A DNA stretch of 64,000 bases from Escherichia coli (GTDB taxonomy: Bacteria; Pseudomonadota; Gammaproteobacteria; Enterobacterales; Enterobacteriaceae), in NCBI RefSeq assembly GCF_024223415.1, contig NZ_CP100500.1; one strand, written 5' to 3'. Both the position numbers and the translations under genes were made by a program. The notes beneath the pieces were generated by a model. That model ran no database searches. It saw nothing but the letters and a program-made list of their open reading frames with translations, and was not told the origin of the DNA. Positions 5,493-45,548 of the stretch are shown here, piece by piece. Numbering within the stretch: the first letter of the stretch is position 1; every line of letters starts with the position of its first letter.

Positions 5493-5580
5493 GGTGAGGT
5501 GTCCGAGTGGCTGAAGGAGCACGCCTGGAAAGTGTGTATACGGCAACGTATCGGGGGTTCGAATCCCCCCCTCACCGCCA
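5493..5580 (+). tRNA. serW: tRNA-Ser (anticodon GGA), long variable arm
   Basis: GGTGAGG...CCTCACC acceptor stem, anticodon loop CCTGGAAAG, GGTTCGAATCC T-arm, encoded CCA end; 88 nt; lies after infA as in the conserved core order. Confidence 0.95.
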
Positions 5581-6887: not shown

Positions 6888-7376
6888 TTACCAGTCGAAA
6901 GTGGGAAAACCCGGCAGACATTCAGCGCCGGCATCCAGATGAATGAGACTGACGCCATAACGCCGGATGAGAGTGACAACCAGACGACGAAACGTTTTTG
7001 ACAGACCCAGGCGTTTAAGCCGCAGAGCCGGGTACGACCACGCATCAGTACGTAACAGATATCCGCTGCCTGTAAAATGAATCCATTCTGATTCGCCGTT
7101 GTCATTCGTCTGATGCGACAGCGAGTACAGCCAGGCATTGTCCTGCTCCGTGATATGTGCGGTACTGCAGCGTATGCCGGTAAGGGCCGCAAATGGTGGC
7201 ATGCAGTCTGCTGAGGTCCGGTCAGATTCATCAGCAACACGAAGGGAACAGCCATTATCGCAGACCACGTTAATCAGTTCAGCGAGATTAACACCATCGA
7301 CGTCAGCGACAATGCGCCCCATGTTCAGTGCCTGTACGTTAACGCTGTCGGCTTCCAGTGTCAGGGACAGTTTCAT
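6888..7376 (-). CDS. YeeW-like protein (DUF5983-type) downstream of cbtA
   Basis: 162-aa ORF whose start overlaps the cbtA stop by 4 nt (ATGA coupling); position matches yeeW in CP4-44-type modules. Confidence 0.6.
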
Positions 7377-7750
7377 GGTTTCACCTCACAGTGTTTACCC
7401 AGGGTGATGTTGTTCACCATTCTGTAGTGGCTGCGGGTCATCAGGCCGGTCGCCCGGCGGGCCCGGAGAATATCAATGCTGCTGATTAACTGCGATGAAG
7501 CTCCTGCGCTGAATCCCGGCTGGTCGGTACGCACCAGCGCGTATTTTTCCACAAGAAAGTTCACCGCATCACACAGTGAAATACCCGCCTCAATATGCTG
7601 CTCAATCACACGTTCATCGGCGAACGGTGTGTCATTCAGCGTGAGGCCGTAGTGCTGGTCCAGCAGCCGGGTGAGCAGTGTCTGCCAGATTTCAACCGGA
7701 GACGGGCAGCGCGATGTTGCCCGTACGTGTGTGTCGGGGAATGTTTTCAT
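7373..7750 (-). CDS. cbtA: type IV toxin-antitoxin system toxin CbtA (YeeV/YkfI/YpjF family)
   Basis: Internal Met of the 7373..7876 ORF gives [80 protein letters not shown]..., closely matching CbtA. Confidence 0.85.
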
Positions 7751-7808
7751 CTTAAGTACTCTGTAACAGGTGATGATAAAGAAGTGCTGTCCGGGGTTAT
7801 GCGGTGGT

Positions 7809-8174
7809 TCAGGGTGTTGCCGGTGTCGGATAAATGGCGATATACACGTAACCACAACTGCCGAGGGTGTCGGCATCGCAGGTCAGCCCTTTCGCATACA
7901 GTGTCACGGTATGCTGATGGCGGGGACTGAGTTCACCGCTGGTGAGCATGAGTTCCAGCTGTTTCATCAGCAGCGGAAAGGCCTGGTCCAGGTGGTACGC
8001 ATCTGCGTCGCTGAACCGGCCTCTGATACCGGCGCGGTCTGCAAGGTAATGCAGGCGGTTACCCTCCTGCACCAGACGGGCACCAAAACAGGGTGTCACG
8101 GTGCAGGGCAGTCCCCACTAGGGGCGGTCGCTGTTGTCGTCAGGATGCGTTGTCCCGGTGAGTGTGTCTGACAT
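7809..8174 (-). pseudogene. cbeA: cbeA (yeeU-family antitoxin) interrupted by an in-frame amber stop at codon 19
   Basis: Minus-strand translation from ATG at 8174 reads MSDTLTGTTHPDDNSDRP-TAG-WGLPCTVTPCFGARLVQEGNRLHYLADRAGIRG...; the stop is the reverse complement of 8118-8120; the rest of the frame is intact (track ORF 7809..8099 from a GTG). Confidence 0.8.
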
Positions 8175-8224
8175 GATAAAGTCCTCACTGATAATCGGTT
8201 AAGAATGGTTTTAACAATGACGGG

Positions 8225-8869
8225 TCAGCCGGTGCGCAGACCGGCTTCGGTGAAGGTGTATCCGTTGATGAGAAGGGCCTCATCCACGGCGTCGTCTGAG
8301 GTCAGCCAGTCGTACTCGTTTTCCAGTTGACTGTATAACCAGAAGGCAAGGTCCCGCAGGGCGTCACAGACAACGGTTTCCGCGCTGGCTGTCATTGCCT
8401 GTCCGGTCGGACTGTCCCGGGTGACGGTGATATCCATGCTGTACGGATGGCAGTAGTGTCCCCGGTGGCGGATTTCAGCCTGAAGCTGCCGGAAGTTACG
8501 CTTCTGCACCGCCTGCAGGGCATCCGCGATACGATGAAGCTCACGGTCCTGCGGGGCATATTCCCTGATTTTCCGGGGTGCCGCTGGCTGCCAGCGCCAG
8601 CGTCCTTCAAAACAGGCTCCGTCCCCCTGGCTGCAGAATCCGCTGAACCAGATGCACGGCTCTTCCATAAACCTGCCGTTGCTGAGCCGGATAACACGCT
8701 GGCGGAGGGCAATCCCGACAATCTCACAGACCGTCCTGAAGTCCTCATACACGTTTTCATACCAGTTGCTGTCAGCATGATGCTGACGGTACCATTCACG
8801 GGCCTTCTCCCGTGCTGTGGCGGAAAGTTCATCCGGCGTATACACGGTGGTGATGATAATTCTGCTCAT
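8225..8869 (-). CDS. hypothetical protein inserted between the DUF987 gene and cbeA
   Basis: 214 aa from MSRIIITTVYTPDELS; GGAG Shine-Dalgarno 8 nt upstream; tightly packed between the yeeT-like stop (8886) and the cbeA start (8174); no family recognised. Confidence 0.6.
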   Translation of the reverse strand: MSRIIITTVYTPDELSATAREKAREWYRQHHADSNWYENVYEDFRTVCEIVGIALRQRVIRLSNGRFMEEPCIWFSGFCSQGDGACFEGRWRWQPAAPRKIREYAPQDRELHRIADALQAVQKRNFRQLQAEIRHRGHYCHPYSMDITVTRDSPTGQAMTASAETVVCDALRDLAFWLYSQLENEYDWLTSDDAVDEALLINGYTFTEAGLRTG

Positions 8870-8885
8870 CCGCATCTCCACTGAC

Positions 8886-9107
8886 TCAGTTCAGGGTGAC
8901 GCTCATCAGCCGGACATACGGGCCAAAACTGTCCTTCCGGCGTTCGGCAAACACGGCAAGCACACCGGGGATATCCTGCACTTCACGACCGGTATACGCT
9001 TCAGCACTGCCGTGCCAGCGGTATTTACCGGTACAGAACGGAAAAAGACGGGATGACGGATACTGACGGTGAACGCGCATGGCTTCACCACGGGTGATGA
9101 TTTTCAT
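8886..9107 (-). CDS. DUF987 family protein (YeeT/YpjJ-like)
   Basis: 73-aa ORF MKIITRGEAMRVHRQYPSSRLFPFCTGKYRWHGSAEAYTGREVQDIPGVLAVFAERRKDSFGPYVRLMSVTLN. Confidence 0.85.
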   Translation of the reverse strand: MKIITRGEAMRVHRQYPSSRLFPFCTGKYRWHGSAEAYTGREVQDIPGVLAVFAERRKDSFGPYVRLMSVTLN

Positions 9108-9196
9108 GAGAACAGTCCTCCTGAATGTGAAAGTGAGAAACAGCTGAGAAAGAGAAACTGAAGTGACAATATGAAGGTGGCTGTGACGGTGACGGA

Positions 9197-9673
9197 TTAA
9201 AGCAGACCGTGTTCCGCAAAGGAGAACACCCGGCTGCCACCGACTATCAGATGGTCCGGTACCCGGATATCCACCAGGGCCAGTGCCTGTACCAGACGTT
9301 CAGTGATAAGGCGGTCTGCCTTACCGGGTGTGACCTCACCGGACGGATGATTGTGCGCCAGCACCACGGCAGCGGCATTGTGGTACAGGGCGCGTTTAAC
9401 CACCTCCCGGGGATGCACTTCCGTGCGGTTGATGGTACCGGTGAAGAGGGTTTCACCGGCAATCAGCTGATTCTGGTTGTTCAGGTACAGCACCCGGAAC
9501 TCTTCCCGCTCCAGTCCCGCCATGTGCAGAATCAGCCATTCCCGTGCCGCATGCGTGGAGGTGAAGGCCACGCCGGGTTCATGAAGATGGCGGTCCAGGG
9601 TTTTCAGGGCCCGCTGAATGAGGCTGCGCTCGCCGGGCGTCATCGCGCCGGGCAGAAAGGAAATCTGTTGCAT
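9197..9673 (-). CDS. RadC-like JAB-domain protein (YeeS/YfjY family)
   Basis: MQQISFLPGAMTPGERSLIQRALKTLDRHLHEPGVAFTS...HNHPSGEVTPGKADRLITERL; JAMM-type HNHPSG motif. Confidence 0.85.
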   Translation of the reverse strand: MQQISFLPGAMTPGERSLIQRALKTLDRHLHEPGVAFTSTHAAREWLILHMAGLEREEFRVLYLNNQNQLIAGETLFTGTINRTEVHPREVVKRALYHNAAAVVLAHNHPSGEVTPGKADRLITERLVQALALVDIRVPDHLIVGGSRVFSFAEHGLL

Positions 9674-9684
9674 AACCTCACCCC

Positions 9685-10158
9685 TCAGTCGATGATGCGC
9701 ATAATGGCGCTGCATTCCGGATGCTGCAGGGCGTAATCCCGCAGCCGGTAATAATGGACCGTCATGGCATAATGCTCCGTACGGCAGGCGTGATGACTGT
9801 AGGCCATCAGGCAGGCGGCAATGCCGGCGGCTTCAGGGCTCATTTCCGCGCGGTTGCCGTTCATGGTGTTAAACAGTGCCCATGTTTCGTCATCATCGTC
9901 ACCCGGTTCGGGAGCCATAAATGCGCCGCCGTTGTTCAGGGTGTACATATTCCAGATACCCCCACTGTAGTCTTCACACAGACGGTCCATCCAGCCGAAG
10001 ATTCGGGGCTCAAGGGTCACCCACTGCGGAATGAGGCCAAAGTGCTGCGGCCAGAAGCTGATGCGCTGTTCGTCAGGCACTGGGCTGGCAACCAGCTGAG
10101 GTGGATTATTCCCGGATGCAGTGGTTGCGGAAACAGAGTCATGCGAAACCGTTTTCAT
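9685..10158 (-). CDS. antirestriction protein (KlcA/ArdB-like, YfjX family)
   Basis: 157-aa ORF with conserved PDEQRISFWPQHFGLIPQWVTLEPRIFGWMDRLCEDYSGGIWNMYTLNNGGAFMAPEP. Confidence 0.85.
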   Translation of the reverse strand: MKTVSHDSVSATTASGNNPPQLVASPVPDEQRISFWPQHFGLIPQWVTLEPRIFGWMDRLCEDYSGGIWNMYTLNNGGAFMAPEPGDDDDETWALFNTMNGNRAEMSPEAAGIAACLMAYSHHACRTEHYAMTVHYYRLRDYALQHPECSAIMRIID

Positions 10159-10160
10159 AA

Positions 10161-10226
10161 GTGAAATCCTTAAGTGAATAAGTGAACAAGTGAATTAAGG
10201 AAATAAGTGAATGAATAAGTGAATAA
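10161..10226. repeat. short tandem GTGAAYAA (TTCAC on the coding strand) repeat tract in the 5' leader of the antirestriction gene
   Basis: Six or seven copies of GTGAA(T/C)AA within 66 bp directly upstream of the start codon at 10158. Confidence 0.6.
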
Positions 10227-45061: not shown

Positions 45062-45125
45062 ACCCACACCACCACGCATACCCGGTCACAGCGTCACCGC
45101 CGTAAACTGCGACCGGGAACGCGCA

Positions 45126-45548
45126 TTACAGCAACGAATTGTCCGTCCCGGTATCTTCCATCAGGGGCTCCCGGCGTTCCCTGCTGTACAGCCCGCTTCC
45201 ACACCCCGGGCAGACCTTTTCTCCTTCATAGCTTTCATCACACATCACACAAAACCACCTTCTTACCTTCACCGCATAATCAGGCACCAGCATGCCCTGC
45301 AGATACACACGACGGGATTCTTTCTCTGCCGGGTCAAGCCAGGTACATCGCAGGAGAACTTTCTCAGAGACCGTCATCTGGTCATGTTCAAACCACGGTG
45401 GTTGTCCGTCCGTGCCCCGCTTAAGCGTTAACGGGCAACCACAGGACACACAGCACAAAACGTCCTGGCGGTTGTGCTCCGCAGCTTCTTTCGCGGTGAC
45501 AAAATGGCCCTTGCTGTCATTCGCCATATAGCAGTTCAGAATTCGCAT
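45126..45548 (-). CDS. zinc-ribbon protein, paralogue B
   Basis: CCVSCGCPLTLKRGTDGQPPWFEH and C-terminal CVMCDESYEGEKVCPGCG; start placed at MRILNCY. Confidence 0.5.
   Translation of the reverse strand: MRILNCYMANDSKGHFVTAKEAAEHNRQDVLCCVSCGCPLTLKRGTDGQPPWFEHDQMTVSEKVLLRCTWLDPAEKESRRVYLQGMLVPDYAVKVRRWFCVMCDESYEGEKVCPGCGSGLYSRERREPLMEDTGTDNSLL

Follow-up and report, generated by a model that had tools for sequence, protein, structure and literature searches.

In this study, we found that the antirestriction gene of an Escherichia coli genomic island is preceded by a real, non-random 8-nt tandem tract that is a member of a true variable-number tandem repeat (VNTR) family. We consider it probable that the tract in the window (the whole 64,000-nt stretch of DNA that was analysed) is a decayed, length-frozen allele of this VNTR and that it has no dedicated regulatory role. 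Under this model, an 8-nt unit (TATTCACT on the mRNA strand, equivalently TTCACTTA) would have been duplicated by slipped strands from sequence just upstream of the ribosome-binding site, the array would have originated in the spacer between a DUF932 gene and the antirestriction gene in one lineage of E. coli tRNA-Ser islands, and substitutions and small indels would have interrupted the units of the window allele and thereby fixed its length. Transcription would run from DUF932 through the tract, which would form an unstructured intercistronic spacer poor in G and rich in pyrimidines. Because the array lies upstream of an unchanged Shine-Dalgarno (SD) sequence and ATG, unit number is expected to have little or no effect on translation initiation, and one mutated unit (UUUCCUUAA) is predicted to be able to pair with the SD, which might modestly dampen initiation. 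As far as our searches on the locus and the motif show, the locus has not been described in the literature.

The tract and its island

The tract lies in a 104-nt spacer on the minus strand, with the DUF932 gene upstream and the antirestriction gene downstream (Table 1). The antirestriction protein matches PF03230 over profile positions 1–92 of 92 and scores 125.9 bits against a cutoff of 25; the identical protein is found in 1,169 index blocks of public assemblies. Relatives of the upstream gene in E. coli carry the annotation "DUF932 domain-containing protein". The layout of the window, which includes a tRNA-Ser(GGA), matches that of an E. coli island inserted at tRNA-Ser beside ghrA, and the genes of the island follow the order Ag43, DUF905, DUF932, antirestriction, RadC, DUF987, CbeA/CbtA, DUF5983, DUF957 and DUF4942, so that RadC, DUF987 and then the CbeA/CbtA genes lie downstream of the antirestriction gene. 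Two other features of the island are worth recording. The Ag43/Cah-type autotransporter ORF (12160-15279, minus strand; 1,039 aa) is intact in the window, whereas in the closest relatives, L001 and L181, the corresponding gene has an internal stop and carries a pseudogene annotation. No Pfam match was found for a 218-aa ORF that separates DUF987 from CbeA (8225-8881, minus strand), and its homologue is called "hypothetical" by RefSeq, or DUF8835 in a newer record.

Table 1. Coordinates of the spacer, its repeat units and neighbouring features in the window
Feature	Position	Strand	Basis or remark
tRNA-Ser(GGA)	5493-5580		
Antirestriction gene, 157 aa, ArdB/KlcA-type	9685..10158	-	PF03230 E 6.9e-37
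Antirestriction start codon	10156-10158	-	RefSeq start of the identical gene in L001
Spacer, 104 nt	10159-10262	-	between the DUF932 and antirestriction genes
Interrupted 8-nt tandem tract	10159..10224	-	TRF, exact-match scan, repeat search, alignment to perfect arrays
Copy AAGTGAAA	10159-10166	+ (letters)	between Shine-Dalgarno and ATG
Shine-Dalgarno AAGGA	10167-10171	-	8 nt upstream of ATG; in all E. coli leader variants examined
Copy AAGTGAAT	10172-10179	+ (letters)	
Copy AAGTGAAC	10180-10187	+ (letters)	
Copy AAGTGAAT	10188-10195	+ (letters)	
Candidate anti-SD heptamer UCCUUAA	10195..10201	-	mutated unit UUUCCUUAA; window-type allele only; prediction
Degenerate 9-nt unit TAAGGAAAT	10196-10204	+ (letters)	
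Copy AAGTGAAT	10205-10212	+ (letters)	
Partial 4-nt unit GAAT	10213-10216	+ (letters)	
Copy AAGTGAAT	10217-10224	+ (letters)	
Polypyrimidine run UCUUUUCUCUCUU	10225..10237	-	borders array on its 5' side; common to perfect-array allele (alignments)
DUF932 gene, 272 aa	10263..11081	-	ORF; PF06067 E 6.1e-52; stop codon opens spacer

The repeat itself is unlikely to have arisen by chance. The spacer contains six GTGAA cores, whereas 0.128 are expected from the window-wide frequency of the motif (Poisson P about 6e-9), which bears out an earlier, sequence-only reading that had placed a GTGAA-type repeat ahead of the antirestriction gene. On the plus strand, AAGTGAAY matches exactly at 10172, 10180, 10188, 10205 and 10217, so that a 53-nt segment accounts for all but one of the six exact matches found in the 64 kb (exact-match scan). 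Tandem Repeats Finder (TRF) reports a period of 8 at 10171-10227, with 7.5 copies, 70% matches, 18% indels and a score of 56. The same reading had described a run of units leading up to the start codon. The repeat and its AAGGA are indeed present, but the start-to-start spacings of 13, 8, 8, 17 and 12 nt make the array imperfect, at most two perfect units are adjacent, and one unit (AAGTGAAA) sits downstream of the SD rather than in the leader run above it. On the mRNA strand, the leader ends in ...UUCACUUAAGGAUUUCACUUAUG.

The spacer differs sharply in composition from its surroundings, with a GC content of 36% compared to 57% in both flanking genes. It is 71% pyrimidine on the mRNA strand, a 68-nt core reaches 79% pyrimidine with only two G, and the best 78-nt stretch of the leader combines 19 C with 3 G (top 0.006% of the 64-kb window) and holds 16 YC dimers. 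Another C-rich, G-poor stretch, at about 45100-45300 on the plus strand, was dropped as it lies inside an opposite-strand ORF. Scans of both strands of the spacer detected no sigma-70-like promoter or intrinsic terminator, and an Rfam scan of 7000-13000 at E values up to 1 gave no match near the spacer. Since the spacer lacks promoter and terminator matches, the simplest reading is that the antirestriction gene is co-transcribed with DUF932.

Several other elements were noted in the vicinity. A GC-rich hairpin of 13 bp with a T run after it (11130-11159, minus strand), between the DUF905 and DUF932 genes, is terminator-like, and the same element lies upstream of DUF932 in L052 and L053. If this hairpin terminates transcription, a promoter for DUF932 and the antirestriction gene would have to lie in the remaining ~50 nt, where none was detected. 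An 8-bp hairpin with a 12-nt loop is predicted at 10242-10269 (minus strand), where it covers the stop codon of DUF932 and precedes CUUUUCUCUCUU. It falls below the criteria of the terminator scan, and the sister allele described below carries another sequence here, which is likewise predicted to fold. A 35-aa ORF that enters the array (10195-10302, minus strand) was rejected; it has no ribosome-binding site and overlaps the 3' end of DUF932 out of frame.

Distribution and copy-number variation

The gene pair is common and the array is rare. Of 5,426 complete E. coli genomes, 4,539 carry the DUF932/antirestriction pair (median three copies), whereas megablast and blastn both found the array leader type in only 11 (about 0.2%). 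Nine of these 11 genomes carry the window-type tract, eight at 100% identity and one with a C-to-T change in a degenerate unit, and the other two carry a sister allele made of perfect TATTCACT units, six in AR_0085 and five in GF60. The commonest spacer type, found in approximately 2,037 genomes including O157:H7 and ST131, is 90 nt long and has no repeat, and the array was absent from the common homologous island types that were sampled. Neither the motif nor any close direct repeat was found upstream of the gene in any of 50 relatives from other Enterobacterales (60–89% protein identity), in a scan that scored both of its positive controls, the window and L052. Searches with the pattern in its SD context returned no matches among IMG/VR viral contigs or JGI metagenomes, and in a plasmid collection the coding part alone matched, with the leader absent.

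Related leaders hint at how the array arose. In L054 (E. coli ZYB62), a single TTATTCAC unit stands ahead of a AAGGATTTCACTYATG segment that is also found in the array allele, and this one-unit leader is probably the progenitor state of the array. Some islands, such as L054 at 874-1119, have an additional hypothetical ORF of 81 aa separating DUF932 from the antirestriction gene, and the leaders of these islands contain just one TTATTCAC unit. In addition, GF60 has a second copy of the window-type antirestriction gene (L198, CP172185.1 3489434-3491307), in which a transposon end at about 560-690 replaces everything upstream of CACTTAAGGA, so that both the array and DUF932 are gone. The transposon end bears an rve/Mu-transposase-C gene and repeated GATCGATT..GATGCCAAA motifs.

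The unit is not confined to this locus. A three-unit pattern searched without its context matched more than 120 metagenome contigs; the two contigs that were inspected, both environmental, proved to be unrelated microsatellites and were set aside as irrelevant. Their perfect 8-nt arrays are built from the same unit or one nearly identical to it, with 13 copies in L107 (255-358) and 10.4 copies in L109 (476-558). In L109, the array is 40 nt ahead of a carbonic anhydrase ORF beside ArgJ, has no Shine-Dalgarno, and probably belongs to a fungal genome. The occurrence of the unit in unrelated environmental contigs thus marks the motif as a generic microsatellite and not a signature of the antirestriction system.

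Where the units are perfect, slipped-strand events change the number of whole units at a higher rate than substitutions build up in the flanking sequence. An alignment of AR_0085 with GF60 over 1,986 nt shows a difference of one 8-nt unit and not a single substitution. A look-up of contigs encoding the exact sister-allele protein (150 index blocks of public assemblies) added assemblies with 3, 4, 5 and 9 units, and overall perfect arrays of 3, 4, 5, 6 and 9 units correspond to spacers of 77, 85, 93, 101 and 125 nt with otherwise identical flanks. The sister allele therefore shows what defines a VNTR, namely alleles that differ by whole units within otherwise identical sequence. Head-to-tail organization is seen in both forms, as a period of 8 in the window and as seven in-register copies at 8-nt spacing in L052.

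The window's own allele behaves differently. All 16 other window-type assemblies (nine complete genomes and seven further assemblies retrieved by a look-up of the window's antirestriction protein) have a spacer of 104 nt, and the only variation among these copies is one C/T SNP. Thus, the proposal that the tract varies by slippage, and the expectation that repeat number would differ across homologous islands, hold for the sister allele but not for the window-type copies, which are identical in unit number. Because at most two perfect units adjoin, the window allele offers little substrate for slippage. The equal length of the window-type copies is nevertheless weak evidence of intrinsic stability, since the islands are in part near-clonal.

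We also considered whether the leader is under constraint, because it is 100% identical in a comparison in which the gene pair is only ~96% identical. Over 6 kb, 58 positions separate the window from L001, and 55 of them fall within ~10270-10900, the 3' two-thirds of DUF932; outside this patch, the two islands are nearly identical. The cluster has the appearance of gene conversion by a paralogous island. Leader identity is thus no evidence of selection, because the differences sit in a recombination patch confined to DUF932. On the other hand, the two array alleles have similar total array length although their flanking genes are ~7% apart, which could reflect selection for a long spacer.

On the ordinary reading, the tract would be a rare VNTR carried on an island and of little biological weight. 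The perfect-array allele could still be useful for fine-scale typing of the few E. coli lineages in which it occurs, and the window tract is a clean illustration of how interruptions freeze a tandem array.

Candidate regulatory roles of the leader

Unit number may nonetheless influence transcription polarity, mRNA stability or the recruitment of ribosomes. In the broadest version of this idea, which we regard as unlikely, unit number would set the expression of the antirestriction gene and of the downstream RadC and DUF987 genes, and the locus would act as a slow anti-defence contingency locus. Two routes can be envisaged: the untranslated, C-rich, G-poor, unstructured RNA could load Rho and cause polarity that depends on copy number, or the leader could serve as a standby platform for ribosomal protein S1 that enhances initiation. 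Rho loading needs roughly 70–80 nt, a length bracketed by the natural spacers of 77–125 nt, and the leader has the composition of a Rho utilization site, with ~70–80 nt of untranslated RNA that is predicted to be single-stranded and in which C greatly exceeds G. The C-to-G skew and YC dimers of the best 78 nt and the polymorphism of the array, from 3 to 9 units, also count in favour of this reading, as does the precedent that simple sequence repeats in a 5' UTR can control expression, for example in hmw1A (PMC12721329). The extreme composition of the leader could therefore matter for Rho or S1. However, the argument is one of composition, and this composition follows from a unit that contains no G. 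Moreover, over 99% of homologous islands that have the same genes lack the array, E. coli arrays of at most 13 units have low mutation rates, and the window allele cannot vary. Our literature searches on Rho or on the regulation of these genes and their K-12 paralogues found nothing relevant.

Folding predictions argue against an effect of unit number at the step of initiation. The SD-to-ATG spacing is unchanged in all alleles, and units upstream of the SD alter only the length of the spacer. The array is single-stranded in predicted folds because the unit has no G, and the predicted energy needed to open the SD is 3.50 kcal/mol for the natural 5-unit array, 3.49 kcal/mol for the natural 6-unit array and flat at 3.4–3.5 kcal/mol across a synthetic series of 2 to 12 units. 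The earlier suggestion that slippage gives variable expression thus finds no support in the analysis.

The predicted fold of the window allele raises a second possibility, also improbable in our judgement, that UCCUUAA was selected to hide the SD, so that translation of the antirestriction gene would remain low until a hairpin opens. This could be added to the preferred reading of a decayed VNTR allele without conflict. In both the minimum free energy (MFE) and centroid folds, UCCUUAA (10195-10201) pairs with UUAAGGA (10167-10173) to form a 7-bp stem with a 21-nt loop, leaving the SD 99% paired (predicted probability of an unpaired SD, 0.01). Opening the SD is predicted to cost 5.4–6.0 kcal/mol in this allele, compared to about 3.5 in perfect arrays and 2.6 in repeat-free leaders, and reverting the mutated unit lowers the predicted cost from 5.36 to 3.16 kcal/mol, a change of 2.2 kcal/mol. 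The anti-SD pairing of the mutated unit is thus predicted to add about 2 kcal/mol to SD opening, and the UCCUUAA unit required three mutational steps. Against selection for such a structure, the isolated hairpin is weak (predicted -4.2 kcal/mol), the leader as a whole folds no better than its shuffles (z -0.81), and the pairing is absent from the perfect arrays of the sister allele, from repeat-free leaders and from all other leader types. The stem is invariant among window-type copies, so that no covarying or conserved pairing was seen and covariation is uninformative, and the sequence around the SD, CTTAAG, is palindromic, which makes chance complementarity easy.

A more ambitious model, in which the VNTR tunes anti-defence expression heritably and reversibly, seems to us quite improbable. 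In this model, unit number would determine how well Rho or S1 engages the untranslated C-rich leader and hence the amount of antirestriction/RadC message and protein that the island produces, and the interrupted window allele, with its anti-SD unit, would be fixed at a low setting. Simple-sequence contingency control is unusual in E. coli. A phase-variable contingency locus would be expected to have its repeat in the reading frame or between promoter elements, and a tract of sufficient length and purity to switch at high frequency; here, the tract lies between the DUF932 stop and the SD with no promoter-like site on either strand, the sister allele has arrays of only 3 to 9 units, and in the window perfect units adjoin in twos at most. 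If unit number did tune the antirestriction operon, repeat instability would be linked to the dosage of an anti-defence gene in a mobile island.

The least probable reading is that the repeats, with their 8-bp period, form an operator for a MetJ-, ParG- or omega-type ribbon-helix-helix (RHH) repressor, for DnaA or for a nucleoid protein. Arrays of 7–8-bp direct repeats are the operator style of RHH proteins, the spacer is AT-rich, and the unit plus one base, TTATTCACT, matches eight of the nine positions of the DnaA box TTATNCACA, giving two one-mismatch sites in the array (10173 and 10218). Yet these are only 2 of 77 one-mismatch sites in the window, none of which is perfect, and position 9 is always T; a DnaA box array is not supported. 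The earlier suggestion that the tract binds regulators fares no better, as the motif neither recurs nor is conserved with the gene set in the way that an RHH- or island-regulator operator would be: there is no second cluster of it in the 64-kb window, and almost every island with this gene set, like each of the 50 cross-species relatives, lacks the array. Unit number also varies freely, from 3 to 9, and no promoter was detected for an operator to control.

Comparison with known repeat systems

The closest parallels to the tract are the VNTRs used for multilocus typing of E. coli, such as the O157 typing loci, which share its head-to-tail units, whole-unit slippage and several alleles among near-identical strains (PMC3777172). 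The antirestriction array differs from these loci in lying in an intercistronic spacer of an island and in that its window allele is interrupted and length-invariant. E. coli VNTR alleles of up to 13 units fall in the low mutation-rate class (PMC3777172), and even the perfect arrays are thus population-level polymorphisms rather than fast switches.

The (ATCTTTC)n tracts of Haemophilus influenzae hmw1A and hmw2A (PMC12721329) are likewise pyrimidine-rich 7–8-nt repeats in a 5' leader with polymorphic copy number. That system, however, needs at least 11 units, a long hairpin in which the repeats pair with a G-rich arm, and cleavage by RNase III (PMC12721329). The E. coli array has 3 to 9 units and no G-rich partner, it is predicted to be unpaired, and it lies in a leader whose transcription we infer; no long hairpin of the hmw type was seen, as perfect arrays are unpaired in MFE folds and the window allele forms only its 7-bp stem. 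The TAACTGA heptamer repeats of Beggiatoaceae, Cyanobacteria and Bacteroidetes offer a third comparison, since they too are tandem short units a few nucleotides upstream of a start codon (PMC4679880). They have been proposed as sites for S1, Csp or a CsrA-like factor, and their presence at about 170 loci in each genome points to a regulon (PMC4679880). In contrast, each island has one antirestriction array, the window contains no further copy, and a canonical Shine-Dalgarno accompanies the array.

Two generic regulatory elements also bear some likeness to the tract. As in SD-sequestering leader hairpins, a 7-nt anti-SD in the window allele pairs with the SD in the predicted minimum-energy fold, although its stem is short and weak, with a 21-nt loop, and is restricted to one allele. 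Rho, which loads at rut sites, silences horizontally acquired DNA, and the array resembles such a site as ~80 nt of C-rich, G-poor, predicted unstructured and untranslated RNA with many YC dimers in an acquired island; this resemblance is one of composition, and a ribosome-binding site lies immediately downstream.
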